Source of the DNA: an uncultured Pseudomonadota bacterium
GTDB taxonomy: Bacteria > Pseudomonadota > Alphaproteobacteria > Rs-D84
Length of the DNA: 64,000 bases
Assembly (NCBI GenBank): GCA_949298405.1
Contig: CASFWA010000001.1
Coordinates: 285,127 to 349,126 of the forward strand
Direction: 5' to 3'
How positions within the stretch are numbered: the stretch's first letter is position 1; the number at the start of each line of letters is the position of its first letter. Position numbers and translations under genes: made by a program. The notes beneath the pieces are model-generated. The model was given only the letters and a program-made list of their open reading frames with translations. It did no database searches and had not been told where the DNA came from. Below are positions 3,428 to 54,396 of the stretch, in pieces.

Positions 3428-3441
3428 TAATTAAGGTTTGA

Positions 3442-7605: not shown

Positions 7606-7621
7606 TGGGTTTATTTTTTTC

Positions 7622-8115: not shown

Positions 8116-8187
8116 TCGCGGGCGCACATAAGGTTATGTGGGCAACCGAATGGTGAAAATAATAAACTAAGCCTAAAGGAATTATTC

Positions 8188-13983: not shown

Positions 13984-14008
13984 AAAAGCCGCCAAAAGGC
14001 GGTTTTTA
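13984..14008. terminator. bidirectional intrinsic terminator
   Basis: AAAAGCCGCC-AAAA-GGCGGTTTTT between convergent genes. Confidence 0.75.
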
Positions 14009-23242: not shown

Positions 23243-23362
23243 ATAATGATTTTCCTTTAATTTTTAGACCCGCCTTTATGGCGGGTGTTTTTTGCGAAAA
23301 AGTTTTTCCTAGACATATAATTCTGTTGTGTGTTAAAATATTTTCCATAGAGAGAATTGTTA

Positions 23363-26300: not shown

Positions 26301-27079
26301 CAAATCCTGTGCTTGGGTTGGCTTCAAACGCGATAACCTCTGATATCGTTTATAATATGGGTAAATGGTCTTTTGGTACACGTGCTTTTTCTGGTGCAAT
26401 AACAGATGAAGAATTATTAGATAATGACCCAACTGTTTCTTCACAATATAATCCTGCAAGACTAGGATTGATGCAAGGTATGCAATCAGATGTTTCTTGG
26501 AACGGTGAAAAATTTGGGTTTAAAACATCTATTGGTACAGCGCATGAAACAGATACTTTATTGGGTGCACAAAGTGGTGGATTATTGAATATGGGGCAGG
26601 GTAATACCTCTTATGTAGATTCTGAAATTCGTTATTCCCCATATGAGAAATTGAATTTTACTTTGCGTTCTACTTTTGCACATACTGAATCTGATGCAAG
26701 TGGACAATTTATACTTGGGTTATCAGATATTGAATCTAATGCCTTCGCCTTTGGTATTGATGCGGGTAATTTCAGTTTTAGTGTTTCGCAACCGCTTACG
26801 GTAAGTAAAGGTAGTTTACAATATGCTTATGCAGATTATGAAATTGTTGAGGTCGATGGTGGAAAGTATGATTTAGTTGTAAATGATACTCATATCGAAA
26901 ATGTTGATTTAAGCCCAGATGCAAAAGAATTACGTTTTGTTGGAACTTATCGTCATAATTTTGGACCTTGGACAGATGGTGCAATTGGTTTTATTTATCG
27001 TGTAAATCCTAATAATACGAGTGAATTTGGTAATGAATCTATATTTATGATGAAATTGAATCATAGACTAGGAATTTAA
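23363..27079 (+). CDS. large outer-membrane-type protein: N-terminal ankyrin repeat, degenerate subtilase-like passenger, C-terminal beta-barrel-like region
   Basis: Signal peptide; ankyrin-like LLSAAKNADIQQVQILINNGANVNYVDSTGLS...; S8-like remnants (MMHGYSAF, LVMPAGEF, YGYGLINLERAMTPG); alternating beta-strand pattern in the last ~300 aa. ORF track start 23357 is TTG; ATG at 23363. Confidence 0.65.
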   Translation: MKYIRILLFSLFLAPSALFAATNDFTIAAQLLSAAKNADIQQVQILINNGANVNYVDSTGLSIVCTALMNNDIRAAQILQMYGADASKCDQQIKQYKNRTTTESSGGLFSGLSSAQGMALAAAGAAVVVGGLFLLTDVLDPGNENAGSSSGGTRPGGDGGGSDSGATASGTIPVGPAYFTSTGEISYSQAAYLSNLQNWDPSAGGIREADFNYFRPSVQTSNNYVTGGITVPMQNYLLMMHGYSAFANGYMGQATFRDESNNPVKILNQAGGGKPMLVSLITANGVNPTGSAGRGYGITYSDSASANSNTYTVDKYANYSAPCVEGETCGAELVGYDLSGSGTAMNPFATANENALAKIVAGWEAGGRAYGDLYGFVPNGQLAVYRTGNGYGFVDVQNPTQGAVVGTLTDSASGGTANTIEAGDSITLNGKTYTIAAATTGAGVTNPTIEINGTTYNLVSESSMMIGTCTSGCGDDETDIAIYVGTDGYYYVNTSGKNTIDAVYVVNNNNIYVQKKWQEIDVMNFQAMYNARNSGSAAIANAVLNPESRSTSYLTTGEMASLFALNSGLDTKTVFMNQINSYYDNDDSGTTTQGGYANTLFNGYNSSLPILVMPAGEFEYGVGDGKSLTVLDATFENYAPALYDDNLEHLFMTVVAVQHSKGTSGADSIEDYGNGTGSAYGPIYLSMWQDNKGTDTTDDDVIYSSRKCGLAGLGINGIDPWCFSAAGPTAEMATASAAGAVAALKGAFNYMNNQQIFTLLALTADGPYLGTTDAGTSFTTDTLVAYLKSMYSLPPDYYADNLTGQAYLDAFAEVYGYGLINLERAMTPGHAIYYYNGNTIVSDSGNAYWRAASNTIFRPSAALSPSTARISAPFFDFLESVDGDMSLPRIWKNDFALGVQDKRGLYMGDVLGDFKTRKSEPNKVQFGDFGFSMAVSEKPYADNLNGLDNMRLDYSVDNWNLAAEYQRYFTDGASRFDGMSNPVLGLASNAITSDIVYNMGKWSFGTRAFSGAITDEELLDNDPTVSSQYNPARLGLMQGMQSDVSWNGEKFGFKTSIGTAHETDTLLGAQSGGLLNMGQGNTSYVDSEIRYSPYEKLNFTLRSTFAHTESDASGQFILGLSDIESNAFAFGIDAGNFSFSVSQPLTVSKGSLQYAYADYEIVEVDGGKYDLVVNDTHIENVDLSPDAKELRFVGTYRHNFGPWTDGAIGFIYRVNPNNTSEFGNESIFMMKLNHRLGI

Positions 27080-30481: not shown

Positions 30482-31570
30482 TTATTGATTTATTTTTACT
30501 GGTATTATTGTTTCTTGCTCTTTTTCATCAAGTGGTGCAGATTGAAACGGAACATTCGCAAAATCTATCTTGGCCATATCAATAGAACGAATCGTTCTGT
30601 TATACATTGTGTGATAATATATAACTCTGTCTTTCATATCTGTTGCAATTGTCCATTGGGTCGCAGAAGGCATATCAACAGGTGCTTTGCCAACAGGGAA
30701 TTCTGTGCCAAGTGGAACATCAAAGTTATTTAGTATATGAAATGCTAACATTGCCGAATCGTATGAAGTGTCTTGCTGAATAGAGTATGTCTGGAAGAAA
30801 GAAGCACGAACGAATCGGGAAGGTGGGGTCATATCACCAGGAAGACCAAGCAAGCCACTACCTGCGCCGAATGCGGAAAGCGTTATCCCACCCATTTTTA
30901 CAGGACCTGCTGTTCCTGGCATAAGATTTACATAATTGTTTAGGTTTTTAATTTGCCATGGGAAATTGGGCGAGTTAGTTAAAACGCCTAATTCGTTTTC
31001 GTAGATTTGTGGTTTACCGTCAACAATTTCTATAACTATTTGTCGGCCGGTAGAATCTGTTACACGCCAGTGTGCAGTTGATGCGTTTGGATAGATGCCC
31101 ACAACATCAATATTTTGAATTGCTGCTTTTACTTGGTCTATGGTCGAAAATCTTGATAGTATCCAAGACACTAACTGAAAGTCTGATATTGTTTTCCCCT
31201 TGTTCGCAGGATTGTATTTCGGATATTGACCATAGCCTGGAAAATAGAATAGGGCAGCAGACAGACCCGCTTCGTTCATACCGTCAACAACCCAACCTGG
31301 TTCTACAACGGCCAAGCCGACGTATCCATACATGCTGGAAAATGTCATACCACCCGAATCACCGTCAGGTAGCATAGATTGCTGAATATGATTGCGCGGA
31401 ACAATTACATAAAGGTTTTCCATTTCGGATTCACCCCATTCAATTGTTCTTGCAACTACAACGCCATTATCTTTGGATTTCAGTGTGATACCCGTACAGG
31501 CATCGGCCACTGTTGCGCTGGTCAAAGTCATGATGACCGCCAGGCTAAAAATCAAGTTCTTCTTTTGCAT
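30482..31570 (-). CDS. secreted choloylglycine hydrolase / linear amide C-N hydrolase (Ntn family)
   Basis: Signal peptide ending ...ATVADA, followed directly by CTGITLK (N-terminal nucleophile Cys); size typical of the penicillin V acylase / bile salt hydrolase family. Confidence 0.75.
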   Translation of the reverse strand: MQKKNLIFSLAVIMTLTSATVADACTGITLKSKDNGVVVARTIEWGESEMENLYVIVPRNHIQQSMLPDGDSGGMTFSSMYGYVGLAVVEPGWVVDGMNEAGLSAALFYFPGYGQYPKYNPANKGKTISDFQLVSWILSRFSTIDQVKAAIQNIDVVGIYPNASTAHWRVTDSTGRQIVIEIVDGKPQIYENELGVLTNSPNFPWQIKNLNNYVNLMPGTAGPVKMGGITLSAFGAGSGLLGLPGDMTPPSRFVRASFFQTYSIQQDTSYDSAMLAFHILNNFDVPLGTEFPVGKAPVDMPSATQWTIATDMKDRVIYYHTMYNRTIRSIDMAKIDFANVPFQSAPLDEKEQETIIPVKINQ

Positions 31571-35139: not shown

Positions 35140-35378
35140 GAATCCACAGGGATGTGGTTTCGGGCCGTAAGAAAGCCAACCCAAAAGCAGCATAAGTTTT
35201 TTTATGCTGAAATGTAGGGATGATACACGGCGCGGATTTGCGCCATTTATTGTCTCTGAACCCCGTATCAGGTCGGGGAGCCGTCAGTTATAAAATAGGG
35301 TATCCCGAAAACTGGCGGGGTCATACTTTTGGGTGATTTTCTTAACTCCCCGACCGCCATTTCCTTGGCGGTTTTTTA
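35140..35378 (+). ncRNA. structured 5' leader A (riboswitch/attenuator-like, unclassified) ending in an intrinsic terminator
   Basis: Paralogous to 62433-62683. Helices GUCGGGGAG/CUCCCCGAC, CCGUCAG/CUGGCGG and terminator CCGCCA/UGGCGG+U6, all with compensatory changes in the paralog. Confidence 0.65.
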
Positions 35379-35476
35379 TAGGATTATTATCAAAAATATT
35401 TTTGTTGACGATAGTCCTAGTTATGATAGGCTTTTTGTACAGAAGGCCCAAAATAAAATTTAATAAAGGAGAAAGT

Positions 35477-38400
35477 ATGTCTACATACAAGCATCTAGCT
35501 GATTTATTAAAAATCTGCTCTGTGTTGCCGGTGCTGGCAGTTATGCCCGCAATGGCAGAGGATAATTTTGCTATAGAAAATCAAATTTATAGCGACTTAA
35601 TAGAAGGCAATGTTAATAAGGATAGTACACGTGGTGGTGCTATAACCATTAATTATAACACAAATGGTGTTACAGTTGCAGATGGAACCGTTTTTCAAAA
35701 TAATGAAACAGAAGTGTCTGCAGGTGGTGTTATAAAAGCCCTTAATGGATTTACTGTTGGGGATAATGTTAAGTTCTTGAATAATAAGGCAACAAAAAAA
35801 GGTTGGGGCGCAGGTGCTTTGTATATAAAGTTGGCTAATGGTGCGACTCCATCTGAAAATACAGATGTTGTAATTGGCAAAGATAGTTTGTTTGAAGGTA
35901 ATGTTGCGGGTCTTGGTGGGGCGATAGGTTTAGAATATGGTGATTTAGAAATTGCAGATGGTGCGCAATTTATTGGTAATGAATCAACAAGTGCAGAAGC
36001 AACACATGGTGGTGGTGCAATAATTGTTTGGCAGGACCAAAAAGATCGTCCAGATTTGCATTCAGCTTTGAAATTAAATGGTGCTACTTTCAGTGAAAAC
36101 TCTGCTGTAAATGTTGGCGGTGCTGTTGCTGTTTTTGATACAGGTGCAAAAGTAAGTATGATAAATACCGTATTTGGTAATAATTCTGCTAATAAAGGTG
36201 GAGCTATCTATAATGAAGGTGAAATATCCTTAACTGGTGATACACAGTTTGTTGAAAATTCTGCTTCAAATACTGGTGGGGCAATCTTTAATGCATCCGA
36301 AGGTGTTATAACAGAAATTTCAAATGCTTTGTTCCAAGGTAATAAGGCAGAAAATTATAAAGATGCAGAAGCAGAATTAAAAAAAGACGTCTATGCCCAG
36401 GGTGGTGCTATTTATAATTTGGGTGAAATTGGTGCCGTTACAGGTGATTTTTCTAATAATACTGCACATACAAAGTCAGAAACCGCAAGTAAAGCAACTG
36501 CAAATGGTGGTGCGCTGGCTCTGTATCAAAGTACAATAGAAAGTATCACAGGTAATTTTGTTGGTAACGCAGCAATTGCAGAAATTGTCGGCAAAAATCA
36601 TGATTATTCAGATGATATGGTTTCTCAGGATAAGTTAGTTTCTGCTGGTGGTGGCGCGATTCATATCGAAGGTAAATGGGCAACTGGTGATACAACAAAA
36701 ATCGGTTCCATTAATGGTAACTTTGTAAATAATAGTGCAACTGGTGATGCTTATGCAAATGGTGGTGCTATTTATATCAAAGCAGGACCAAACACAGATG
36801 TTTCTATTGATAAAATCACAGGCGACTTTATAAATAATAAAGTTGTTGCCGTGACAGATAATAAAGACATAGCAAAAACTTCTACTGGTGGTGCTATTTC
36901 TATCAAAGAAGCAAGTGGTAAAACTGCAACAGTTGATGTAGAAGGTAATTTCGGTGGAAACAGCGTTACAACAAATGCGACAAATGCTTTTGGTGGTGCC
37001 GTTTATAATGAAGGCACATTTACTGCAAAAGGTAATTTCCAGAATAACTTGGCTTTCTCTAATACCGGAAAGGTTTATGGTGGTGCATTGTATAACAAAG
37101 GAACTGCAAATATCACAGGTCACTTTGTAAATAACGCTGCGCAATCAGAAGACCATGTAAGCGGTTTTGGTGGTGCTATATTTAATGACGGTGATTTAAC
37201 ATTAGCAGAAAATACAACGTTCTATGCAAACCGTGCAGATAATGCAGGTGGAGCATTGTATAATGGTGGTAAAATTGAAAATCTGTCGGGTATAACATTT
37301 AGAAATAATTATGCTTTTACAGGTGGAGCAATTAATAACGCTAAGGTTAATGCAGATGCGACTGCGGGGTATATAGGAACAATTGAAAATTCTTCGTTTG
37401 TAGGAAACTTTGCCGCTGCTTCACAAGGGGGGGCGATTCGTAATCAAGGTGTTATAAACGATATTAAAAGTTCTCTGTTCGAAGGGAATGTGGCAGCTAA
37501 TGGCGGTGCCTTGAATAACGGTACATGGGGAACTGTTGTTAATAGCATTGTAGATACTCAATTTATTAATAATACTGCTTTGACAGGTATAGCTCAGGGT
37601 GGTGCAATTGTTAATGCGGGTACAATCGGTTTGATTGATAATTCAACTTTTGCCGGTAATCAGGCTGGTAAATTAGGTGGTGCTATTGCAAATGTGACAC
37701 CACAGGATTCTAGCAACCCAGAAAAAGTATCTGAAATTACTTTCAATGGCGTTACTTTCACAAATAACGTTGCTGGTGTAGAAGGTGGTGCTATCTATAA
37801 CAAAGGTGCGATCACTTTCCAAGGCGATAACGTTTTTGCAGGCAATACTGCTGCAGGTGTTGCAAACGATATCCATAACTTAGGTTCCTTGACTTTTGCT
37901 GATGGCACAACCATCATTGGTGGCGGTATCACAGGTACAGGTTCTTTGGATTTGAACGAAGGGGCTACTCTGAATATCGGTGCTAACACAATCAATCAGG
38001 GTACAATGAACATCAATGGTAATGTTGCTGCTTCTATCGTAAACTCTCAGTCTTACGGTAAATTGGTTGGCGACTTGACTGTCGGTGATTCCGCAGAACT
38101 TACATTGAATATCGGTGCAACTGGGGTTTATAATATCTTTGCAGATGAAGACCTTGAAATTGCTAATCTGACAATCAATGCAAATAATGCTTTGTATAAT
38201 GTTTCTATGGATGGCAGTGCTATCGTAGTTGAAACAAAAGCTGTCGAAGAAATTGCAGCCGCAACAAACTTGGCAGTAGATACTGCAGGCGTTTTGGCAG
38301 GTTTGGCAAATAGTGATAGCTATGAAATGGGAATAGCTTCGTTGGTAGCTCAGCAGGCTTTGGCAGAAGGTAATACAGAATATGTTGAAGCAGAATCTGC

Positions 38401-39307
38401 AAAGTTGAAAGCAGATGATAAACCTGTTACTCATTCTGTTGCAACATCTGTTCAGAATCAGGTCTTGTCCTTGGCTTCTGGTCGTATGTCCGGTAATGCA
38501 AATGTTGGACGTAGTGGTGGTGATTTAGCAAATGCAGATTATGGTGTATGGGCGCAGGGGCTGTTCAATAAATCTAAACTGAACGGTCAATTCGACGGTT
38601 ATACTCGTGGGGTTGCTGTCGGTGCAGATGCATTGATTGGTGGCGATTATACAATTGGTATCGGTTATGCTTATAACTCTACGGATGTTCATGCAGAAAG
38701 TGCTCGTGATACAGATATTGAAAGCAACAGCGTATTTGTATACGGTCAGTACAAACCAGCACAGTGGTATGTAAATGCTGCATTGAACTACACAATGGCG
38801 GACTATACAGAAACAACAAACGCGTTCGGTGTTGATATCAATTCTGAATATGATGTCACATCTTTCGGTGGTCAAGTTGCAGCAGGTTATGACTTTGCAA
38901 GTGGGTTGACACCAGAAGCAGGTGTTCGCTACTTACATGTTTCTCAAGACGACTATAATAACGGCTTGGCAGATATCAAAGTTGGCGATACAGATTACTT
39001 GACAGGTGTCGCAGGTGTAAAGTATACCTTTGATATCGATACAGAAAAAGGTTTAAGTTTGCGTCCAGAATTGCGTGCGGCAGCTACATATGACGTATTG
39101 TCTGATGAAGCAATCGCAACAGTCACAATGCCTGGTGCCGCATCATACATTGTTGACAGTAAACGTCTGTCTCGCTTGGGTGGTGAATTCGGTATCGGTT
39201 TGACTGCAAACTATAAGGGTGTAGAAGTATCGTTGAACTATGACTTAGACTTGCATGAAGATTACACTTCTCAGACAGGTATGTTGAAGTTCAGATATAA
39301 CTTCTAA
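35477..39307 (+). CDS. autotransporter with polymorphic-membrane-protein (Pmp) type GGA(I/L/V) / FxxN repeats
   Basis: RBS AAGGAGAAAG; signal peptide ...AVMPAMA; roughly two dozen FxxN...GGAIYN units by eye; C-terminal beta-barrel domain ending ...GMLKFRYNF. Confidence 0.88.
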   Translation: MSTYKHLADLLKICSVLPVLAVMPAMAEDNFAIENQIYSDLIEGNVNKDSTRGGAITINYNTNGVTVADGTVFQNNETEVSAGGVIKALNGFTVGDNVKFLNNKATKKGWGAGALYIKLANGATPSENTDVVIGKDSLFEGNVAGLGGAIGLEYGDLEIADGAQFIGNESTSAEATHGGGAIIVWQDQKDRPDLHSALKLNGATFSENSAVNVGGAVAVFDTGAKVSMINTVFGNNSANKGGAIYNEGEISLTGDTQFVENSASNTGGAIFNASEGVITEISNALFQGNKAENYKDAEAELKKDVYAQGGAIYNLGEIGAVTGDFSNNTAHTKSETASKATANGGALALYQSTIESITGNFVGNAAIAEIVGKNHDYSDDMVSQDKLVSAGGGAIHIEGKWATGDTTKIGSINGNFVNNSATGDAYANGGAIYIKAGPNTDVSIDKITGDFINNKVVAVTDNKDIAKTSTGGAISIKEASGKTATVDVEGNFGGNSVTTNATNAFGGAVYNEGTFTAKGNFQNNLAFSNTGKVYGGALYNKGTANITGHFVNNAAQSEDHVSGFGGAIFNDGDLTLAENTTFYANRADNAGGALYNGGKIENLSGITFRNNYAFTGGAINNAKVNADATAGYIGTIENSSFVGNFAAASQGGAIRNQGVINDIKSSLFEGNVAANGGALNNGTWGTVVNSIVDTQFINNTALTGIAQGGAIVNAGTIGLIDNSTFAGNQAGKLGGAIANVTPQDSSNPEKVSEITFNGVTFTNNVAGVEGGAIYNKGAITFQGDNVFAGNTAAGVANDIHNLGSLTFADGTTIIGGGITGTGSLDLNEGATLNIGANTINQGTMNINGNVAASIVNSQSYGKLVGDLTVGDSAELTLNIGATGVYNIFADEDLEIANLTINANNALYNVSMDGSAIVVETKAVEEIAAATNLAVDTAGVLAGLANSDSYEMGIASLVAQQALAEGNTEYVEAESAKLKADDKPVTHSVATSVQNQVLSLASGRMSGNANVGRSGGDLANADYGVWAQGLFNKSKLNGQFDGYTRGVAVGADALIGGDYTIGIGYAYNSTDVHAESARDTDIESNSVFVYGQYKPAQWYVNAALNYTMADYTETTNAFGVDINSEYDVTSFGGQVAAGYDFASGLTPEAGVRYLHVSQDDYNNGLADIKVGDTDYLTGVAGVKYTFDIDTEKGLSLRPELRAAATYDVLSDEAIATVTMPGAASYIVDSKRLSRLGGEFGIGLTANYKGVEVSLNYDLDLHEDYTSQTGMLKFRYNF

Positions 39308-40203: not shown

Positions 40204-42762
40204 TTATTGACCAGTAGTGTCATCTGTTCCTTCTTCGTCTGTTGCAGTCATTTGCTCTTTGTCCGCGCAATATCCCCACTTTGTATTAGCACCGGTTTCG
40301 TCATAGAAATATTTGTATAATATATGTCCTGTTATATCATGTATGTTGTCAGAACCTTCTATTAAGTCACTTGGAGCACGTGTCGTAGTGCCTGAATTTG
40401 CATCTTTTGGGTGCATTGTGTCAACCCATTGGGTGTCAACCCACACGCCGCCAAGACGCTCGCATTCGGCAGATAGTACCTTTGCCATTTCTACACGAAT
40501 TGAATCCATTACAACATTGACATCTTCTAAAACGGTTGTTGGTATATTTTTTCGACCAGCAGTAATTTCTTCTAAGTCTGAAGGACGTATACATACTTGG
40601 GCCGCATATTTTACCATTTTCTGGTACAAACTTCCTGCGTAGTCTGTCCCGCAATCAATTCCTTCTGTGTCGAATGATTCACCAACTGGTCCCTTGGTTC
40701 CACCAGGGCATTGTGCATCGGCAGGACATGCTATACAAGCATTGCCCGGAACTGGATTGGAATTGTATACCCAACTCCCAGATTCATTTTTTGTTGCAAG
40801 ATAATAACCAACATTACATGACGTGTATCGTTTGTATGAAGGGCATATATATCCCTTGCTAGGCGTGGAGGTAGGTGGTTCTGGAGTTATTTCAGATACA
40901 GAATCATTGCTTGATGACCATTGTAATTGGTTGCAGAACCAGTTAGCAGCATAAATTTGATCGCCGGGTGCATAAACACGACAGCCATAAGGGTAAGAAT
41001 GTAAACTGTCATTGCTTGGTACTGCACACATATCAACCGCAAATTCTTTTAACAATGTTGCGCATTCCTGGGCAATTTTCTGGTCTGTTATGTTATGCAT
41101 AGCAGTTATTAGCAATTCTAAACCATTGCCATTTGGGTCGCCGTATAGATTGCTGCATGCATATAATTTTTCTTGGCATAGTTCTTCTGATAGTTCTAAA
41201 CGAGAACCAAGTAGCAATTCTTCTTTTATGTTTGTAAAGTCTTTTAATGATTCACTTTGTTCGTCATAGCAGGCGTTTACAACATCTAAACATTCATTCT
41301 TTACATTTCTAATTTTTTCTTGCTGTCCTTGATAAATTTCTGTAATTGCTTGACGCATAAATTCGTCCCATACTTCGTCGGCAATATCACGACAAGTTTC
41401 TAAGCCGCGTTCCGCAAAACTACGTTTCCTATTTAATTCCGCAACAAGCATGCGATTTGTCGGATTGGTTAATATGTCTCCACTTAAAGAGGTTTGGGCT
41501 TCTAATTGATAAAAGTCTTGGGTGTAAATTGGTTCGCCCGTTTCACGATTTAAATATCGACCCGTTATATCCAGACAGTGTACGTAATCTTCACCACATG
41601 CATTATCCGCTGTTATGTCTTTGCGAACCTGGGCAATACAATCGTTTATAGAAGTAGAATTATGGGCGTTATAATTGTCAAGACGAGCCATATTCATTTC
41701 GCGTTCTGTGTCGCGTATTGTACTGTTTGCTTGGTTTAAACTTTTATCAAGCGCATTTGCTAATGTTGTGCAGTCGTTTTCAATGTACATACCATAAGCA
41801 GATACAACCATGTTAAAGGTTGCTGTTGATGTGCAGTTTCCAGATACCAGTTCTGCACATTGTGCATGAACAGCATTGTAAAGTGATTCACCTGTTAAAT
41901 TTATAATGTTTTCACCTGATGCCAGGTCCGTTGTTGCCCATATCTGATTTATGTCGCCGGCGATGTCCAGAGTACCTAGGGTGGATAAGGATTTTGACTT
42001 CGTTGATGATAATACATCACTTATTCCTGCTAGTTTCTGAGCAGATGCGGAATTGTCCGTTTTTATAGCACTTTCGCCTTCTGATGCAGAAAGCATCGCT
42101 TTTACTTCTTCAGCGGTTTTAGGTATTACTTCCAGATTTAAATCTTTGAAATCTTGGATTTGATTCGCACTTTGTGATAATGCGCGTTCTTTTTCTTGAA
42201 TTTCGGAAAGACGAGAAGAACAAACACAACGACGATAAGAGTCATTCGCGTTCGCACAAAATTGATCCATACATGTGAAATATGCATCGCGACATGAATT
42301 ATAACTTGTTCCAAATGTATTCGTCGATGATGTAGATATTGTAGATGCACGACCAGGTGTTAATGCAGAACGTACAGATGGGGTCACCGTTTTTCTGGGA
42401 GTTGCAGTTGTCCTTACAACAGAATTGTTTGCCGCATTTCGCGAAGTTGCCGATTGTGCTGAATTGGATGTGCTGCGGGCAGCGGTTGCACTGCGTGAAA
42501 CATTAGATTGAGTAATATTTTTTGTAGATGCGGTTCTGGAAATTATGTTGCCTGTATCGCGCGTTGTTGTGTTCGTTGTTGTTCTGTTCGTAGTGTCTTG
42601 CCCCTGAATAGTCGCGGCCGAGTTGGTCGCAGCACGCGCAATAACTGTGGCAACACTTGAATCTTTTGAATTTCTATTTATGGATTCTGTACTACGAACA
42701 GCAGCATCGACACAGCCGATGCCTATGCTATACGCTAGTACAAAAAGCAAAAACCTTTTCAT
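40204..42762 (-). CDS. large secreted cysteine-rich coiled-coil protein (family member P2) with a CxxCP module in the C-terminal part
   Basis: Signal peptide; long R/S/T/N-rich tract; CRDAYFTCMDQFC...RCVCS; ACGEDYVHC; CNVGYY...GNACIACPADAQCPGG. Confidence 0.85.
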   Translation of the reverse strand: MKRFLLFVLAYSIGIGCVDAAVRSTESINRNSKDSSVATVIARAATNSAATIQGQDTTNRTTTNTTTRDTGNIISRTASTKNITQSNVSRSATAARSTSNSAQSATSRNAANNSVVRTTATPRKTVTPSVRSALTPGRASTISTSSTNTFGTSYNSCRDAYFTCMDQFCANANDSYRRCVCSSRLSEIQEKERALSQSANQIQDFKDLNLEVIPKTAEEVKAMLSASEGESAIKTDNSASAQKLAGISDVLSSTKSKSLSTLGTLDIAGDINQIWATTDLASGENIINLTGESLYNAVHAQCAELVSGNCTSTATFNMVVSAYGMYIENDCTTLANALDKSLNQANSTIRDTEREMNMARLDNYNAHNSTSINDCIAQVRKDITADNACGEDYVHCLDITGRYLNRETGEPIYTQDFYQLEAQTSLSGDILTNPTNRMLVAELNRKRSFAERGLETCRDIADEVWDEFMRQAITEIYQGQQEKIRNVKNECLDVVNACYDEQSESLKDFTNIKEELLLGSRLELSEELCQEKLYACSNLYGDPNGNGLELLITAMHNITDQKIAQECATLLKEFAVDMCAVPSNDSLHSYPYGCRVYAPGDQIYAANWFCNQLQWSSSNDSVSEITPEPPTSTPSKGYICPSYKRYTSCNVGYYLATKNESGSWVYNSNPVPGNACIACPADAQCPGGTKGPVGESFDTEGIDCGTDYAGSLYQKMVKYAAQVCIRPSDLEEITAGRKNIPTTVLEDVNVVMDSIRVEMAKVLSAECERLGGVWVDTQWVDTMHPKDANSGTTTRAPSDLIEGSDNIHDITGHILYKYFYDETGANTKWGYCADKEQMTATDEEGTDDTTGQ

Positions 42763-42837
42763 CCTTATCTTTTAAGTATGATAACAAAAATATATTTTTA
42801 AGGAAAGAAATATTTAAAAAATATGTGCTTTTTTATA

Positions 42838-42868
42838 AGAAAAAATCCCGCCTTTTGGCAGGATTTTA
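42838..42868 (-). terminator. intrinsic terminator downstream of infA
   Basis: Minus strand AAAATCCTGCC-AAAA-GGCGGGATTTTTT. Confidence 0.7.
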
Positions 42869-42871
42869 TAT

Positions 42872-43120
42872 TTAATTTCCTGTTGCATCGCCCGATGTGC
42901 GATTGCGTTCAACGAAAGTTATTCTACCTTTGTCCAGGTCATAGGGCGTCATTTCTACACGAACTTTTTCACCAACGTTTACCCATATACGAGCCTTGCG
43001 CATCTTGCCGCATACGGTTGCTAAAATTTCGTGCCCGTTTTCTAATTTTACACGAAACATTGTATTTGGAAGTTTATCTTCAACTGTGCCGCTAAAAACA
43101 ATTACATCATCTTTTGCCAT
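42872..43120 (-). CDS. infA: translation initiation factor IF-1
   Basis: [42 protein letters not shown]...; canonical IF-1. Confidence 0.95.
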
Positions 43121-43258
43121 AATTATCACCAGAATTTACTTAAAAATTACAGCGATTATCATATTATTTTTAATAAAAAATTGCAAGTTGTTTTTATGTG
43201 CTTGCACACAAACTCTTCATTTGATAAAATTAATAATAATTTATGTAGGGTGGGTTTT

Positions 43259-45412
43259 ATGAAATTAAGATTTGTTTTGGCGGTTTTATTAACGTTCCCA
43301 GGTTTCGCTTTCGCGGCAGAACGCGCAGATTCTAATGTCAGAGTTGGCGTAAATCGTATGTCTATGGCGGGGGTGCGGGTGCCTAATATGACTGCGAATA
43401 TTACTACAAATACAACTAATCCTACAATGTCGACTAAGCCAGCAGGAACAACAAGTTCTAATTCTACGGGCAGTTCCACGACAAATGAAAATACGGATGC
43501 ATCTGATGATGATGCTGGTTCACAAACAGGAAGTCAATCTTGCCGAGATGCGTATCGTGCGTGTATGGATGAATTTTGTTTGTTAGATGAATCAGAAGGG
43601 AACCGTTGTGCTTGTTCGTCTAATATTAATCAATCAAAATCTTTAATACAAGAAATTCAGGAAATTCAAGAAGAAGCGGATTTGCTTTATACAGAGGGGG
43701 TCGAAAGAGAACAGTTGGGGGCCCAGGCAAAATTGGTTTTCGGAGAAAGTGAACAGGCAAAGAAAAGTTCCGCAGTTTCGGGGATAAATTTCTTAGATTG
43801 GATAAGTAGTGGGACCGAAGAAGAAGTTAGTCTTGGCGCAGATGCGGATATTGGTGATTCTTTATATGCGATGGCTTCACAATTTTGTTCTGATAAATTA
43901 GCAGCGTGTGGTAGCAGTGCGGAAATGGAAGAAGTTTTGTATGCGCGTCAAATAGTTCAAGATTGTAAATCTTTTGAATCTTATTTAAATGATCAAAAGT
44001 CTATTGCTGAATCTAATAAACGTACGGCAGAAGCGGCGGTGCGCCAAGCACGCTTAGAAATGTTGGATACAACAAATAAGTATAATCGTGGTGAATGTTT
44101 GTTGGCTTATCGTGCATGTATTTCTGATAAGGGCGGTTGTGGTGTAAACTTTGAAAATTGTTTAGATGCTGATTTGTTGGGTAGACGTGCGAATGCTTGT
44201 GAAAATGTATTAGACCAATGTATGGCTGTTCGTGAATATGTGTTGGAAGATTGGGAGGCAGAGGCAGAAAGTATACTTGTTGATGCGGCAAAGTATGCCG
44301 ATAGAAACGCAAGGGCTACGTGTTTGGCAAGAATACAGGTATGCTTAGAAGACGGGTGCTCTACAGAAACTAACTCTGCTTGTTTGACGGATGTTAATGT
44401 TGCGGCGGGAATTTGTCCTGTTATTGATGAGTGTGAATCAATGATTCCAGGTATTAAATCTGTGGTAAATGATAAGTTAGGATATTTGCGTACTCAATTC
44501 TGTCAAAATGATATTGACCAGTGTTTGCGCGATAGATGTGGTGATAACTTTACTGCACCAGAATGCGTTGGTAAAAGTGCAATTGAAATTGCTGAACTTT
44601 GTCCGCAATCAATGTTTCCGTCTTGTAAAAATGAAACTCAGTTTGACATAATTGTTCAGGCGGCTTTGTTGCAGATGGATTATCAAATGTTGCAGGGATG
44701 TTTAAATTATTTTGGGGAACAACTTGGTAATGTTTGCGGAACAGATATGTCTTGTTTGCCAACTGATACAAAAATTACGTCTTTGGTTGCTGTGCCAGAT
44801 ACAGAAGAGGGCTTGGCTGAATTGCGTGAAACTGTTAGAGCAAATACAGAAGCGGCAGTTGATGATTTCTTTGTTCAGTTTGAAAAAGATAAAACAGTTG
44901 CTGCTTGTCAGGATAGTCAAAAACCTGCTGATCAGAAAAGGTTAGGTGAAAGTGTATTTAATAGTGCAAAGCTAGTTGCACAAATTAGTGCGGAAAATCG
45001 TGCTATGCGTGAACTAGAAAGCAAAATTGCTGAGTTATCGCGTGAGCAGGATTTAGAAGCGGCAGAACAAAACTGTTTAAACACGTATAAAGTAGAAACG
45101 CCAGATAAGTCTAGCAAAAACTATAGTTATATACGTAGTGTATCTTTTGAGCCGGCCTTGCGTAATTGCCATGTTTGCCGTATGCAACAAGTTTGTGAAG
45201 TTGGCGGTGAAAGTAAAGGTGCTGCTGGGGTAAAAGGATTGGCTGGTGGTTTGTCCGCTGGTGCAGCAGCAGGAACAATGGTTTCACCGGGTTGGGGAAC
45301 TGCCATCGGTGGCGTCGTTGGTGCTGTGGGCGGTTTCTTCGCAGGCCGTAGTGCTGGCGGCGAACAAGAATTCTGTCAGGAAATTGAGAGTTGTGAAGAT
45401 ATAAATATGTAA
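43259..45412 (+). CDS. large secreted cysteine-rich coiled-coil protein with C-terminal glycine zipper (family member P3)
   Basis: Signal peptide MKLRFVLAVLLTFPGFAFA; CRDAYRACMDEFC...RCACS; GGCGVNFENC; CGDNFTAPEC; CHVC; WGTAIGGVVGAVGGFFAG. Confidence 0.85.
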   Translation: MKLRFVLAVLLTFPGFAFAAERADSNVRVGVNRMSMAGVRVPNMTANITTNTTNPTMSTKPAGTTSSNSTGSSTTNENTDASDDDAGSQTGSQSCRDAYRACMDEFCLLDESEGNRCACSSNINQSKSLIQEIQEIQEEADLLYTEGVEREQLGAQAKLVFGESEQAKKSSAVSGINFLDWISSGTEEEVSLGADADIGDSLYAMASQFCSDKLAACGSSAEMEEVLYARQIVQDCKSFESYLNDQKSIAESNKRTAEAAVRQARLEMLDTTNKYNRGECLLAYRACISDKGGCGVNFENCLDADLLGRRANACENVLDQCMAVREYVLEDWEAEAESILVDAAKYADRNARATCLARIQVCLEDGCSTETNSACLTDVNVAAGICPVIDECESMIPGIKSVVNDKLGYLRTQFCQNDIDQCLRDRCGDNFTAPECVGKSAIEIAELCPQSMFPSCKNETQFDIIVQAALLQMDYQMLQGCLNYFGEQLGNVCGTDMSCLPTDTKITSLVAVPDTEEGLAELRETVRANTEAAVDDFFVQFEKDKTVAACQDSQKPADQKRLGESVFNSAKLVAQISAENRAMRELESKIAELSREQDLEAAEQNCLNTYKVETPDKSSKNYSYIRSVSFEPALRNCHVCRMQQVCEVGGESKGAAGVKGLAGGLSAGAAAGTMVSPGWGTAIGGVVGAVGGFFAGRSAGGEQEFCQEIESCEDINM

Positions 45413-45480
45413 TTCTTGGTTTCAAAGATGTGTAATTTTATCCGAATAATAATTAAAGTTCGGATTTGAAAGGAAAAAAG

Positions 45481-47985
45481 ATGAAAGTAAAAAATCTTTT
45501 TGGGTTTATGTCAGGGTTGATTGCGTGTGGTATGATAACAGGGGCCTATGCTTTGACTAGTACGACCGCCACAAAGCAATCTGCGATACAAAAGGGTACA
45601 ACGGTTAGGACTCGTGTTGCGGCTACCAGTTTGTATGATCAAGCCTGCTATGATGCTTATTTCGGATGTATGGATCAGTTCTGTATTACGGATAATTCTA
45701 ATGGTGGTAGTTGTACTTGCAGTGATGATAGTATTGAATATGAAAAAGAATTTGCAGAAATTCAGGCTATATTAGAAGAGGCTAATAGAATTAATACTGT
45801 GGAAGTTGAACGTGTAAAAGCGGGTGCAGATGCTGATATTATTTTTACTGGTGAACGTAGATATGATGCAGATGGTAATATAATAAGTGACAATGAGTTA
45901 ATAGAAGCAGAAAAAAAAGAACAAGAACGCGCAAGTTTGTTGGCTCTGTTCGAAAATACTTTATATACAGAAGATGATGTCTTTGAAGATACGGTTAGCA
46001 CAATAGCAGATAAAACAGGGGCAGAGTTATATAGTGCTGCACACGAACTATGTTATGCACAGGTTCCTGATTCTTGTGCAGGTGATATAGAATTTTTACG
46101 TCAATTATATGCAAGACAAATAACTTCTGATTGTTTGGGCTTTAAAAATACTTTGACGGAAAAAAGAGCCGCGGCAGAACTTGAACTGGCAAATGCGGAG
46201 TCTGCTGTTAGAAATGCTTTGAAAGAAAGTTTCGAAGAAGCGAATAAATATGACCTTGGTCAGTGTATGGTTGAGTTTAAAAAATGTATGCAGACAGAAG
46301 ATGCCTGCGGAGAAAACTGGGAAAATTGTGTTTCTACTATCGCTTCTGAAAATATGCAGAATAATGAAGCTGTTAGTACTGCAGGAACAAAGGTTAAAAC
46401 GGTTGAAACTTATGATATAACTGCGTCTACGATGGAAATACTGGAAGCGAAACGAACAATTTGTGAATCCGTTTTGGATAATTGTGTCGCAGTTCGTGAT
46501 ATGGTTTGGCCAAGTTTTTTAAGAGAAGCGGCACCAACAATAAATGTTGCAGAAATGCAGGCAGAATCAAAATTCCGCCAGTCTTGCTTAACTAACATCT
46601 CAAATTGTATTCAGAATGCGTGTAGAGATGATATTGCAGGGAAGGGTATCGCAACTATGGACGCTTGTTTATCTAGACCTGATATGGCGCGTAGTTTCTG
46701 TAAGGTTGAAATTGACCCTTGTGAACGTATGGAACCTTTAATCTGGGGATATGTGGAAGATAAATTAGCCGCAATGAGAGTCGATGCTTGTACACAAGAA
46801 GTTAAAGATTGTTTTACTGCGGATACAAGGTGCGGTAAAGATTTTGAAAATTGTATAGGTATGGATTATGATTATATAAAAAATATTTGTCCATTGGATT
46901 CTTTGGTAGTTTGTAAAGCTAATAACCCAGATTTTTCAATGGATGATTTGGACAGTATGTTGATGGGTTTATATCTGAATATCGATAATGCTGCTATGGA
47001 ACAATGTCAGAATTTGGTTGACCAAAAAATGGCCGAGGTTTGTGGCAGTACAACAGACTGTAATAGGTTTGCCGCAGATGATACTATTGGGACAGGCTCT
47101 TTGCGTTCACAGAAAGATGGTACTACATATCGTGTGACTGGTATGATTTCTTTCGGTAGTATAAAAATGGGTGATGCGGCAGGAACTGTTATAGATGATG
47201 GTGAAGGTGGACGTGTCACATTAGAACCTGGTGAAATTGGTGTTCAAGAATACCTTGCAAAAGTTCGTGCAAATAATTCAGGGGTTGCAAATTCTGAAGC
47301 AATTATTTCTTCTATTGAAGAAGAGTTGAATAATATTGCAGGAACGATAAATCGTACAATTACTATGATAGAACAAGACCCAGAAATACAATATTGTGTA
47401 AATGGGCGTGATTTATCACAGATAACTGGAAAAGCAGGTGAAAAAACTTCTGGGCGGTTCCCAAATCTGCTGAATCAGGTTAAAATGCAAATCGCGGTCG
47501 CTGCTTTGCGTCAAGCGCAAGATAATTATAATGCAAAGTTAAATTATGAGGTCGCAGAGGCAACTAAAAATGCGTCTACTGATTTAGCACAGTATATGTG
47601 TCAAAAGATTGCAGAAAATGGTGGTGCTGGTAGCGGCGACGTCATCGCATCTACACCATTAACCGCTCCTTATGCAATTAGTTATGATGTCGGATCCGGC
47701 TTGTCTACAGAAGATTTAACAAAAGGTGGTGCAGGTGTTTTGCAGGCTGGTGGTGTGACATTTAAAAATAGCGGATATTTGGGTGGTGCTAGCATGAGTG
47801 GTGGTGGTATGACCAAAGAAGTCACAGCAATATTTAGTCGTGATACAAGAACTTGCCATATCTGTACAACTGTGACTGTGGAAAATTGCAAAACAACAGG
47901 TAGTAGCAGTTGGTTCCATAATAGTAGAAATACAAGTTGTACGACCGAAGTAGCAAAATCTGAATGCGAAGATATTGTTATGTGA
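45481..47985 (+). CDS. large secreted cysteine-rich coiled-coil protein (family member P4, collinear with P1)
   Basis: Signal peptide MKVKNLFGFMSGLIACGMITGAYA; CYDAYFGCMDQFC...SCTCS; ACGENWENC; RCGKDFENC; G-rich segment; CHIC tail. ORF track start 45466 is TTG. Confidence 0.85.
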   Translation: MKVKNLFGFMSGLIACGMITGAYALTSTTATKQSAIQKGTTVRTRVAATSLYDQACYDAYFGCMDQFCITDNSNGGSCTCSDDSIEYEKEFAEIQAILEEANRINTVEVERVKAGADADIIFTGERRYDADGNIISDNELIEAEKKEQERASLLALFENTLYTEDDVFEDTVSTIADKTGAELYSAAHELCYAQVPDSCAGDIEFLRQLYARQITSDCLGFKNTLTEKRAAAELELANAESAVRNALKESFEEANKYDLGQCMVEFKKCMQTEDACGENWENCVSTIASENMQNNEAVSTAGTKVKTVETYDITASTMEILEAKRTICESVLDNCVAVRDMVWPSFLREAAPTINVAEMQAESKFRQSCLTNISNCIQNACRDDIAGKGIATMDACLSRPDMARSFCKVEIDPCERMEPLIWGYVEDKLAAMRVDACTQEVKDCFTADTRCGKDFENCIGMDYDYIKNICPLDSLVVCKANNPDFSMDDLDSMLMGLYLNIDNAAMEQCQNLVDQKMAEVCGSTTDCNRFAADDTIGTGSLRSQKDGTTYRVTGMISFGSIKMGDAAGTVIDDGEGGRVTLEPGEIGVQEYLAKVRANNSGVANSEAIISSIEEELNNIAGTINRTITMIEQDPEIQYCVNGRDLSQITGKAGEKTSGRFPNLLNQVKMQIAVAALRQAQDNYNAKLNYEVAEATKNASTDLAQYMCQKIAENGGAGSGDVIASTPLTAPYAISYDVGSGLSTEDLTKGGAGVLQAGGVTFKNSGYLGGASMSGGGMTKEVTAIFSRDTRTCHICTTVTVENCKTTGSSSWFHNSRNTSCTTEVAKSECEDIVM

Positions 47986-48057
47986 TTATATCTTTTTGTA
48001 TTAACTTTTCAGTCCTCGCGGTTATTCGCGAGGGTTGATTTATATATAGGATAAAAA

Positions 48058-49440: not shown

Positions 49441-50553
49441 TTATCTGTTTGTTAATTGTAATTCGATTCGTCTATTCTTTTGCAGACTTGCTTGGTCGGT
49501 GCCCAGTTCAACAGGATGTAAGTCACCAAAACCACTAGGTACTAAGCGACGTTTTGATACGCCTGCCTTGGCCAATTCTTCGGCAACTGCATTTGCACGT
49601 AATAAAGATAATTCCATGTTATTTGAATATCCTTTTGTCCCAGGAACTACTTTCTGTCTATCTGTATGACCATCTATGCGGATAATCCAGTTAACATCTG
49701 TTGGGATTTTATTTTCTAAATCTTTTATTACATTCGCAATTAAACGTAATTGATTTTTTCCTTCTGGTGACAGTTTGTATGAACCGCTACCAAATAGAAT
49801 GTCACTGGATACTATGAAACGGTCACCATCTGGTTGAATATATGCGCCGTCACCCAAAGCCGTCTTTATCGCTTTATAAAACTCAGATTGATATTGTGAG
49901 ACTTTGTTCAATTCTGCAACTTTATCAGCCAAGGCTTTATTCAAACGTGAAGACATTTCTACATATTGAATATCTTTTTCATGGGCTTTTTCTTCTGCCG
50001 CATCTAATGCAGCTTGCAATTTTGTTAATTGTTCTGCTAAAGATGCTCGTTGCGCTTCCATTTGACTTTGTAGGGCACGACGTTCTTGTTCTAATTCTGC
50101 TGTTTTCTGTTTGTCCAAGGTCGCTTGGTTTAATTGCTGGGTTAATTCTGCAACCTGATTCTGTAAATCTATACCCTGAGTTTGCAATTCGGCGACTTTT
50201 GCTTCATATTCAGAAACAAGTTCGTCCATACTGATATTTACTTGCTGCAATTCATTCGTTAATTTGGTGTTGCTATTACCTAAATTTTCTAATTCTGCAC
50301 GTGCTAAAATCAGCAAGCGTTTTGCTTCTTCCTCGTCCGCGGTCATTTGTAATATTTTTTGTGCTTGTTCAGCATTTGCTTGTTTTAAGTCAGAAACTAC
50401 TTTGGCACCTGTGTTTTTATTAAATACACTGGTCGTAGTCCATAAAAAGACAAAAACAATTAATAAAAATATCAAAATTATGACCAAATTTGAAAATAAG
50501 TCCACAAACGCTGGCCATGTGTTTGTTTTTTCTCGAAAACGAATGTTTAACAT
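49441..50553 (-). CDS. MotB/OmpA-family protein with a long coiled-coil linker
   Basis: N-terminal plug/TM WPAFVDLFSNLVIILIFLLIVFVF (conserved Asp); heptad-rich linker of about 180 aa; C-terminal OmpA-like domain (IDGHTD...LSLLRANAV...NRRIEL). Confidence 0.8.
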   Translation of the reverse strand: MLNIRFREKTNTWPAFVDLFSNLVIILIFLLIVFVFLWTTTSVFNKNTGAKVVSDLKQANAEQAQKILQMTADEEEAKRLLILARAELENLGNSNTKLTNELQQVNISMDELVSEYEAKVAELQTQGIDLQNQVAELTQQLNQATLDKQKTAELEQERRALQSQMEAQRASLAEQLTKLQAALDAAEEKAHEKDIQYVEMSSRLNKALADKVAELNKVSQYQSEFYKAIKTALGDGAYIQPDGDRFIVSSDILFGSGSYKLSPEGKNQLRLIANVIKDLENKIPTDVNWIIRIDGHTDRQKVVPGTKGYSNNMELSLLRANAVAEELAKAGVSKRRLVPSGFGDLHPVELGTDQASLQKNRRIELQLTNR

Positions 50554-50580
50554 TTGTTTTTCCCTCTCGCTTAATATTTT

Positions 50581-51342
50581 TTATAATTCTGAAACTGTTT
50601 TTTGCAGTTCTTGAATATTTTTATTTATTTCTTTTGCGGCTGTATTTATCGTTTCTGTTGTGTCTGGAATTACAGGAGTTGTATGAGCAGATAAATAATC
50701 TTCTAGTTCATTAAATATCGCATTCTGGGCCAGTTGAACCTGTAAACCTAAAAAGCCAATCATCAGACTGCCTGCAAGCCCCATTAATGAACTTGTAAAT
50801 GCAGTTGCCATACCTGATAAAGGTTTAGATAAGCCTTCTTGCATAACACTTAGTACAGCAGCGTCATCAAAGTTCAGACTGCCGATTAAATCCGCAAAAC
50901 CACCAACTGTAATTATCAATCCCCAAAAAGTACCCAATAACCCTAAGAAAATAAGAGTGTTGGTTATGTATCTGATTGATTCACGTGAATCTTCAAAGCG
51001 CATCAAAATCATATCCAACATGCTTTGTAGGGTTGCAGTAGATATTCTTGTCGGGCGAGCACGTAAAATTAATGCAACAGGTCTTAATAACCGAGGTGGA
51101 AGTTCAACATTCCTTTTACCCCTGAAATAAGCACTTGCCCATCTATATTCTGGTAATAATTTAAATATTTCTATGAAACTTAGACCAATACCAAACAGGG
51201 TTGTACCAATAATTATTCCATTTAAGAATATGTTTGCGCTGGCTATACGCAAAAATGGTTCATAAAACAAAATTAAACCTGCTGCAAGTAAAGCAGTAAA
51301 AAATGCCATACGATTAAGTGTTCTATGAAACTGATTTGTCAT
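50581..51342 (-). CDS. MotA/TolQ/ExbB proton-channel family protein
   Basis: LIFLGLLGTFWGL ... GMATAFTSSLMGLAGSL signature; directly upstream of the MotB-like gene. Confidence 0.8.
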   Translation of the reverse strand: MTNQFHRTLNRMAFFTALLAAGLILFYEPFLRIASANIFLNGIIIGTTLFGIGLSFIEIFKLLPEYRWASAYFRGKRNVELPPRLLRPVALILRARPTRISTATLQSMLDMILMRFEDSRESIRYITNTLIFLGLLGTFWGLIITVGGFADLIGSLNFDDAAVLSVMQEGLSKPLSGMATAFTSSLMGLAGSLMIGFLGLQVQLAQNAIFNELEDYLSAHTTPVIPDTTETINTAAKEINKNIQELQKTVSEL

Positions 51343-53568: not shown

Positions 53569-54396
53569 ATGACTTGGACAATTTTGGTTCTAGTAGTTGG
53601 TATTCTTCTGTTCATGTTTGGTGGCATGATGTTGCCAAAAGGTGACGGGAAAAAACCTTCTGCAAAAAATATCGTATTACACAAATCTATCAAATTGATT
53701 TCAATCATTTTGATTTCTGGCAGTATCTGCCGCTTGTATGTTCCATATTATTTGACTGCGGTAAATCCTATTATCGTTCAGGAAATGGTAAACGGTATGC
53801 AAGAACAGCAGCAGGCTGAAAAAAATAAACAAATTCGCAAAATGGTTCGCTCTGAAGGCGAAAAAATGATGGCTGATGCACCTGTATTGGGTAATCGCGA
53901 TGCGAAAAAAACAATTTATGTTTGGACAGATTTCTCTTGCCCATACTGCCGCCGTGTACACGGGGAATTGGATAGAGTTTTGTCAGAACGTGACGATGTT
54001 CGCGTAGTTGTAAAGAATTTCTCTATTCATGGTCCTTTGTCTGATGGTCCTGCAAAAGCAGTTATCGCTGCTAAATTACAGAGCCCAGAAAAAGCAGCAA
54101 AATTAACAGATATGTTAATGACACGCGAATTCTATACTCAGGACGATTTGAAAGATCAGTCAAAAATTGCTGAAAAAGTTGAAGCAAATGTTATGAAAAT
54201 GGCAGAAGAAGCAGGTTTGGATACTGCAAAGTTGAAAGAAGATATGAACGGTGAAGTAGTTGCTCGTGAATTGAGAAACGTTCGTGACTTGGCTCAGCAG
54301 TTCGAAATCAGCGGTACACCATTCTTAATCATCGGTGAACAAGCATTCCCAGGTGCAATACCTTATGCTCAGATTAACGATGCTTTGAATGATTAA
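53569..54396 (+). CDS. membrane-anchored DsbA-family thiol:disulfide oxidoreductase
   Basis: N-terminal TM; WTDFSCPYCRRVH (CxxC); C-terminal ...GTPFLIIG. Confidence 0.8.
   Translation: MTWTILVLVVGILLFMFGGMMLPKGDGKKPSAKNIVLHKSIKLISIILISGSICRLYVPYYLTAVNPIIVQEMVNGMQEQQQAEKNKQIRKMVRSEGEKMMADAPVLGNRDAKKTIYVWTDFSCPYCRRVHGELDRVLSERDDVRVVVKNFSIHGPLSDGPAKAVIAAKLQSPEKAAKLTDMLMTREFYTQDDLKDQSKIAEKVEANVMKMAEEAGLDTAKLKEDMNGEVVARELRNVRDLAQQFEISGTPFLIIGEQAFPGAIPYAQINDALND

Follow-up and report, generated by a model that had tools for sequence, protein, structure and literature searches.

Four large cysteine-rich (Cys-rich) proteins, here named P1 to P4, were identified in a 64,000-nucleotide stretch of DNA (hereafter the window) from an uncultured alphaproteobacterium of the GTDB order Rs-D84 (assembly GCA_949298405.1, contig CASFWA010000001.1, positions 285,127 to 349,126, forward strand; ENA scaffold ERZ16268284:scaffold_730). 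Sequence comparisons indicate that they represent four ancient orthogroups of one family, which is undescribed and without match among the solved (PDB) or viral-predicted (BFVD) folds searched. They are under strong purifying selection and behave as core rather than variable proteins. They also belong to a conserved set of at least nine Cys-rich exported genes. Our preferred reading, held tentatively and at somewhat below even confidence, is that P1 to P4 may be helical, disulfide-stapled proteins with a structural role in the periplasm or outer membrane.

P2 (40204..42762, minus strand) consists of 852 amino acids (aa) in the list of open reading frames (ORFs). P3 lies within an ORF at 43181..45412 on the plus strand; its likely start is the ATG at 43259, because its orthologs begin with MKL, which gives a protein of 717 aa with 36 Cys. 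P4 (45466..47985, plus strand; 839 aa) likely starts at 45481, because its orthologs begin with MKVK or MKIK, giving 834 aa. The fourth paralog, P1 (11021..13981, plus strand; likely start 11039), is located immediately after the ribosomal cluster of the window and possesses 986 aa and 38 Cys. A first-pass annotation of P2, P3 and P4, made from the sequence without database searches, had described a shared N-terminal head signature followed by coiled coil and CG-x-[DN][FYW]-x-x-C modules, with C-termini that differ. The three signatures it quoted were found verbatim, as were the strings TCHICTT, NCHVCRMQQVC and WGTAIGGVVGAVGGFFAG and the acidic tail of P2, and the C-termini do differ. The head (at aa 157 in P2 and aa 95 in P3) follows the pattern C-x6-C-x4-C-x9-C-x-C; a six-frame scan of the window returned the strict form in P2, P3 and P4 only, and a looser form added only P1. 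One or two copies of the module follow each head, with two in P1 and in P4, one in P2 (CGEDYVHC) and, in P3, one strict copy together with the variant CGDNFTAPEC. The Cys module is internally duplicated, as seen for P3 when residues 196-305 were compared with residues 398-460 (hhalign probability 86%).

Composition-adjusted BLASTP gave E values of 2e-56 for P3 against P4 (30% identity over 513 aa), 2e-19 for P2 against P4 and 1e-14 for P2 against P3, and aligning P1 to P4 together gives approximately 20 invariant Cys columns. This resemblance is far above what chance or composition would produce, and P2, P3 and P4 are true paralogs of one another and of P1.

Signal peptides of the SPI type (signal peptidase I) were identified in all orthogroups, with cleavage sites such as ADA-AV and SYA-LT. 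No lipobox was conserved in any orthogroup among the orthologs compared, and lipoprotein anchoring was rejected, the 'LIAC' of P4 and the 'IGIGC' of P2 not being kept in orthologs. The signal peptide of each paralog is followed by a disordered low-complexity linker rich in T, S, N, A and R. The linker of P3 (aa 40) contains the short sequence R-[MV]-P-[TN]-M (RMPTM or RVPNM), which also occurs in the disordered N-terminal linkers of two further Cys-rich proteins described below, C499 (aa 64) and C695 (aa 53). Among ORFs of 100 aa or more, these three are the only ones of the window to contain it, and it recurs in P3 orthologs and in L013_748, a homolog of C695; it may serve as a common signal for sorting, processing or binding. 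Downstream of the linker is a core of approximately 500 residues composed of long alpha helices, with 29-38 Cys per protein. The Cys spacing is mostly C-x6-C, often in tandem (C-x6-C-x6-C-x6-C); each of P1, P3 and P4 has 8-11 instances of it, and P2 has 4. From this spacing we infer that the Cys may act as staples between neighbouring helices.

AlphaFold2 models were obtained for P3 (alignment of 70 sequences; predicted local distance difference test (pLDDT) 72.8, predicted template-modelling score (pTM) 0.35) and for P4 (alignment of 93 sequences; pLDDT 69.0, pTM 0.43). Both have an all-helical core containing blocks at pLDDT 80-90, with helices of up to 58 residues. Of the coiled coil that had been proposed after the head, the models thus bear out long helices (30-58 residues), their support being limited to the helices. 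The helical core of P3 extends from approximately residue 90 to 610, and that of P4 is similar with the addition of a small beta insertion (547-592). At the C-terminus is a sheet of three to four strands carrying CHxC...C and C...C-E-D-I-x-M motifs. In P3 it has three strands, with CHVC...C and C..C-EDINM, and a glycine-zipper loop of approximately 45 residues (653-700) is inserted between the strands. In P4 a disordered Gly-rich segment (720-780) precedes a four-strand sheet with CHIC...C...C...CEDIVM, and in P1 a hydrophobic glycine-zipper hairpin (aa 859-907) lies ahead of a CHKC tail. P3 had been said to have the reverse order of Gly-rich segment and CHxC motif relative to P4; the order does differ, but the P3 zipper lies inside the same sheet, unlike the Gly-rich segments of P1 and P4, which precede it. 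The arrangement is kept within each orthogroup, down to distant lineages. The C-terminal region of P2 is, as originally described, a different one, in which a distinct Cys-rich segment with CxxC is followed by an acidic tail and the glycine zipper is absent.

Conservation was examined with ORFs called in 82 related loci and classified against the proteins of the window (locus counts are given out of 81). Each paralog has one-to-one orthologs across these loci, with identities of 44-96% for P3 (median 73), 41-98% for P4 (median 68), 24-93% for P2 (median 58; found in 64 loci) and 35-96% for P1. Each of 217 family genes from approximately 80 loci was divided into head, middle and last 180 residues for separate classification; the three parts were assigned to the same orthogroup in 211 genes, and the six discordant genes were concentrated among P1-type genes and distant lineages. 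This concordance implies that the tails diverged long ago and have stayed fixed since, and nothing indicates that recombination continues among them. The tail of P3, for example, is on average 76% identical among orthologs and ends in E[ST]CED[IV]NM in 57 of them. From the head onward, 36 Cys are present in all 68 P4 orthologs and in 64 of 66 P3 orthologs. The Cys count of P2 is mostly odd, with 29 in 31 of 61 orthologs. Length varies only in the N-terminal linkers, in the region after the head of P4 (663-846 aa from head to end among orthologs) and at the C-terminus of P2, which in some lineages is extended by Cys repeats. Such extensions can be long, bringing the protein to as many as 43-48 Cys and up to 879 aa from head to end, and in locus L014 they include EGF-like C-x-C-x-x-GY motifs.

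The ratio of nonsynonymous to synonymous substitution rates (dN/dS), computed against the closest genome (L059 and L002), was 0.016 for P4, 0.047 for P3, 0.049 for P1 and 0.073 for P2. For reference, infA, the gene for translation initiation factor IF-1, gave 0.017, the small neighbouring Cys-rich gene C234 gave 0.026, and a neighbouring Pmp-type autotransporter gave 0.385. The first-pass annotation had taken conserved heads with shuffled tails as the mark of a diversifying surface-protein family, and had raised the question of an insertion around infA. As an account of P1 to P4, a surface-antigen or adhesin family with recombined tails, inserted around infA, would explain why the four paralog tails differ and why length varies in the N-terminal linkers and at the P2 C-terminus. 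It is nevertheless very improbable given dN/dS values of 0.016-0.073, the concordance of head, middle and tail, the invariant Cys counts, the conservation of each tail type within its own orthogroup and a fixed gene order: P2 (-), infA (-), P3 (+) and P4 (+) occur in this order in 62/81 related loci, at protein identities of 41-98%. The arrangement is thus ancestral to the clade, and a recent insertion of the paralogs around infA is not supported. An assembly chimera was likewise rejected, since the same arrangement is present in more than 60 independent assemblies. The diversifying surface protein of the locus is instead the autotransporter (35333..39307, plus strand), a protein of 1324 aa with Chlamydia-type Pmp repeats (PF02415, PF03797), which lies upstream of C234 and whose orthologs are only 34-77% identical.

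The gene between P2 and P3 is a genuine infA (42872..43120/43129, minus strand), matching TIGR00008 with 88.7 bits against a trusted cut-off of 61.15 and PF01176 at 3e-23. Its likely start is the ATG at 43120, which gives 82 aa as called on the source contig, and its orthologs in the related loci are 81-98% identical. It had been credited with a terminator of its own, and a terminator-like hairpin was indeed found after it by consensus scan (42842..42867, minus strand; 11-bp stem with 5 GC pairs, followed by a T-run); this putative terminator, a consensus match only, separates infA from P2. A second terminator-like hairpin from the same type of scan (48009..48038, plus strand; 13-bp stem) would end a P3-P4 transcription unit. 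The spc/alpha cluster is present in the same window at 2457-9933 (S8, L6, L18, S5, L30, L15, SecY, S13, S11, RpoA and L17), and no infA was found within it, in agreement with the earlier statement that infA lies outside the ribosomal cluster. The description of the gene as displaced does not hold, because in Proteobacteria, Escherichia coli included, infA usually stands alone and apart from the spc/alpha cluster. It is an ordinary housekeeping gene located between two transcription units of the Cys-rich set, and it already lay between P2 and P3 in the ancestor of the genus, before the genus diversified.

Searches for known relatives covered P1 to P4, C234 and their neighbours. Scans of Pfam and NCBIfam with E values up to 10 gave no family match above threshold for P1 to P4 or C234, and the sub-threshold hits were noise (glycine-zipper, bacteriocin IIc and ZorA coiled-coil models). 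The glycine-zipper matches reached 14.3 bits for PF13488, against a cut-off of 25, and E=2 for PF05433. PDB sequences searched with the family profile gave 0 matches at E<=10, and PDB sequence searches with C234 and with the P2 tail gave no match. Foldseek comparison of the models with the PDB gave best E values of 0.74 (P3) and 1.4 (P4), with none at E<=0.001, and that of the P3 model with BFVD a best E value of 0.12; the best Foldseek matches were generic helical or small-sheet proteins.

UniRef gives the name 'IncF plasmid conjugative transfer protein TraN' to a P4 ortholog with 78% identity (UniRef100_A0A9D1JWE5, here P0157). Taken at face value, this name would place P1 to P4 with the TraN-like proteins that stabilise mating pairs in F-type conjugation. 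TraN is likewise exported and Cys-rich, and of similar size, and as a Gram-negative envelope protein (TIGR02750, PF06986) it is comparable in kind. Its models (TIGR02750 and the NCBIfam PRK12355 series), however, gave no match to P1 to P4 or to P0157 at E<=10, while 13 TraN models were matched by F-plasmid TraN as positive control; P1 to P4 had no Pfam match, comparison of the family profile with F TraN by hhalign gave a probability of 0.4%, and there was no significant Foldseek match in the PDB. A tblastn search with P4 against 72,556 plasmids returned nothing at E<=10, which also leaves the family without plasmid relatives in that collection. The neighbourhood contains no tra or type IV secretion system genes; core genes are found instead, the neighbours being infA, MscS, BOF, ribosomal proteins, RecO, DsbA, PGK and RNase HII. 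A TraN identity was rejected on the combined evidence of models, hhalign, plasmid search and gene context, and is highly unlikely; the public annotation of the P4 ortholog is misleading and is corrected here.

Relatives of the family are numerous and narrowly distributed. Family searches of clusters at 90% identity gave at least 1029 and at least 1530 matches, and at 50% identity 975 clusters matched with E<=1e-3 and 456 with E<=1e-30. Among GTDB species representatives, 291 stretches were confirmed, and the best 80 of these were all from Alphaproteobacteria, being Enterousia or 'Rickettsiales' metagenome-assembled genomes. All relatives seen so far belong to uncultured Alphaproteobacteria of the gut, whose records carry the labels Candidatus Enterousia, 'Alphaproteobacteria bacterium' or 'Rickettsiales bacterium', and the lineage that carries the family is Rs-D84. 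No relative was found among 2.9 million viral contigs, and a phage origin was rejected on that ground.

P1 to P4 are accompanied by further Cys-rich exported genes. C234 (39441..40145, minus strand; 234 aa, 9 Cys) is located directly downstream of P2 on the same strand, and it adjoins P2 on this side in 55/81 loci. It is probably co-transcribed with P2 and is a probable partner of P2. Nine Cys are found in 39 of 57 C234 orthologs, and the odd counts of C234 and P2 suggest an intermolecular disulfide between these adjacent products. A second group lies near P1. C695 (15156..17243, plus strand; 695 aa) is exported and Cys-rich, with glycine-zipper segments and no Pfam match; it is homologous to L015_780 and L013_748, located in or beside the family cluster, and is syntenic with P1 across Enterousia. 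C766 (17681..19981, minus strand), which sits between C695 and C499, is an exported protein with Cys repeats and glycine-rich segments, in which an N-terminal CarboxypepD_reg domain (PF13715, 1.1e-15) is combined with a C-terminal OmpA-type, peptidoglycan-binding domain (PF00691, 2.7e-17), and its synteny is conserved. C499 (19993..21492, minus strand), also exported and Cys-rich, contains a glycine zipper and two modules of the form C-x6-C-x4-CG-x-[DT]F-x-x-C and is a homolog of L015_391. C288 (21504..22370, minus strand) is an exported protein of 288 aa and 20 Cys; it carries a CGPDFSSC module and a motif resembling the head (CSQANLTRCLDSACA...RCQYCG), and is a homolog of L015_289. Both C499 and C288 thus carry the Cys module of the family; hhalign against the family profile gave E 2.3e-4 (probability 44%) for C499 and 2.1e-5 (probability 77%) for C288, and C499 is remotely related to the family. 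A protein of 337 aa, TM337 (14006..15019, minus strand), is kept between P1 and C695 in Enterousia and in locus L013; its N-terminus has hydrophobic segments, its middle is acidic and its C-terminal region is conserved, and it gave no Pfam match.

In locus L015 of a distant relative (JAVBPX010000003.1, 524..19669, plus strand), 12 exported Cys-rich genes form one same-strand cluster without infA. Among its members are genes resembling P1, P2 and P3, a homolog of C234 and four others, three of which have homologs near P1 in the window (C695, C499 and C288). The window homologs of this cluster are split into two conserved sub-clusters, and the one with the order L17-P1-TM337-C695-C766-C499-C288 is kept across Enterousia and in L013. 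The persistence of these neighbourhoods through rearrangements suggests that the proteins of the set probably work together. The only genes in the flanks of the L013 and L015 clusters were unannotated Cys-rich genes, a reverse transcriptase and L17, and no informative domain was found there. The reverse transcriptase gene (RVT_1) belongs to L013, a termite-gut relative, where it lies at 7265..8329 (plus strand), just upstream of L17 and P1. The nine Cys-rich exported genes of the window together amount to approximately 5,900 codons, or approximately 17.6 kb of the 64 kb. A gene for a DsbA-family thiol:disulfide oxidoreductase (53569..54396, plus strand; PF01323, 9.1e-21) is conserved in the neighbourhood, and the enzyme is likely the source of the disulfides in these proteins, a functional link that we infer.

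Under the structural reading, the exported proteins would be oxidised by the DsbA-type enzyme, and the resulting intramolecular staples would lock helix hairpins into rigid rods. Glycine-zipper hairpins would dip into a membrane leaflet, most likely that of the outer membrane, and the paralogs, C234 and other members of the set would assemble into a scaffold of fixed stoichiometry in the periplasm or outer membrane. The outcome would be a disulfide-stabilised envelope skeleton, similar in working principle to the chlamydial Cys-rich complex and not homologous to it. A link to the periplasm and peptidoglycan is suggested because C766 carries the OmpA_C domain, the DsbA-like gene lies nearby and there are sub-threshold matches to outer-membrane glycine-zipper families.

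Several points weigh against a structural role. It is argued solely from the anatomy and conservation of the proteins. The pTM values of both models (0.35 and 0.43) are low and do not define the arrangement of the domains, and the glycine-zipper Pfam matches all fall below the curated cut-offs. The fold comparison covered the PDB and BFVD, and a structural relative may exist among uncharacterised cellular proteins. P2 orthologs vary at the C-terminus, with 546-879 aa from head to end and 24-43 Cys, which is more in keeping with a domain that is exposed and adaptable than with a scaffold that is buried. Strong conservation would also fit a machine, or a part in receptor binding aimed at a conserved target.

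An alternative is that the set is a conserved apparatus for cell contact or feeding, its Cys-rich rods being surface-exposed or envelope-spanning. Such rods would fasten the metabolically dependent bacterium onto partner cells or the epithelium of the host, or would conduct metabolites, and would be conserved because their target is conserved. Rs-D84 genomes have been described as smaller than 1 Mb, with most biosynthetic pathways absent and a partner-dependent lifestyle predicted; standard transporters are also lacking, and it has been proposed that metabolites are taken from other cells (PMC12306168). This background speaks for a feeding role, as do the size of the set (at least 9 genes) beside a Pmp-type autotransporter, the pair of MotA/ExbB-like and MotB/OmpA-like genes downstream, the variable C-terminal Cys-repeat extension of P2 in some lineages and the suitability of long rigid helices as a spacer or stalk. 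The recognisable export signals are, however, of the Sec type only, and neither sub-cluster contains an ATPase or a known secretion-system component. Exposed proteins of gut bacteria seldom have a dN/dS at the infA level, the exposed autotransporter evolving approximately 5-24 times faster, and the OmpA_C domain in one member of the set points to the periplasm. On this evidence a contact or feeding apparatus is rather unlikely, and the reading of P1 to P4 as stapled envelope components is preferred.

A broader proposal, which we consider doubtful yet worth stating, is that P1 to P4, C234, C695, C766, C499 and C288 belong to a set of 9-12 genes that builds a previously unknown envelope organelle of Rs-D84. 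Such an organelle would be a disulfide-stapled, peptidoglycan-tethered skeleton or a trans-envelope stalk with no homolog in characterised systems, and it could replace lost envelope functions or mediate attachment to, or feeding on, gut partner cells.

Among characterised systems, the chlamydial Cys-rich outer-membrane complex (OmcB/OmcA, MOMP and Pmps) is the nearest parallel. Several exported Cys-rich envelope proteins are present in both, in an obligately dependent bacterium with a reduced genome, with a DsbA-type oxidase and with Pmp-type autotransporters adjoining (chlamydial background in PMC6752827 and PMC4217174), and rigidity from disulfides is the working principle proposed to be common to them. 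In contrast, P1 to P4 have no sequence relationship to OmcB or OmcA and no Pfam or NCBIfam match above threshold, and their predicted fold of all-alpha rods is, to our knowledge, not that of OmcB. The chlamydial proteins form a redox-switched intermolecular network, while the even, invariant Cys counts found here suggest intramolecular staples; the odd counts of P2 and C234 are the only hints of intermolecular cross-links of the chlamydial kind.

Two further comparisons concern parts of the proteins. Glycine-zipper outer-membrane (lipo)proteins of the SlyB/YiaD type (Gly-zipper_Omp, PF13488; Rick_17kDa_Anti, PF05433) resemble the GxxxG-rich segments of approximately 45 residues in P3 (653-700) and P1 (859-907), for which a hairpin dipping into a membrane leaflet is a plausible common role. 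They differ in that matches here are sub-threshold, a lipobox is absent, the zipper is inserted as a short piece into proteins 700-1000 aa long and is missing from P2. The twin-CX9C/CHCH proteins of the mitochondrial intermembrane space offer a parallel to the staples proposed here, with Cys spaced along two helices for a disulfide-stapled hairpin in an oxidising compartment; the spacing is 9 rather than 6, size, organism and compartment are different, and no homology was detected.

Candidatus Enterousia and other Rs-D84 members are common in human, livestock, bird and termite guts. The P1 to P4 family is a major, tightly constrained part of a minimal genome, and a gene set of this size and constraint implies a central role in the cell envelope or in the dependent lifestyle. 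The Cys-rich set therefore offers a handle on that lifestyle, as targets for antibodies and cryo-electron tomography and as expression markers.

Other genes of the window were observed beside the set. An ORF at 23357..27079 (plus strand) encodes 1240 aa, with an N-terminal Ank_4 match just below threshold (22.4 bits; cut-off 22.7) and otherwise no matches; it is conserved beside the C288 sub-cluster in several loci. At 49441..51342 (minus strand), a MotB-like protein of 370 aa (N-terminal transmembrane segment, long coiled coil and OmpA_C) adjoins a protein of 253 aa with a weak MotA/ExbB match (E 5e-4, below cut-off), and the pair is kept downstream of P4-MscS-BOF in most loci; the lineage has been reported to lack flagella (PMC12306168). 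A choloylglycine (bile-salt) hydrolase gene was identified at 30482..31570 (minus strand; PF02275, 2.4e-66), which fits a vertebrate-gut habitat.

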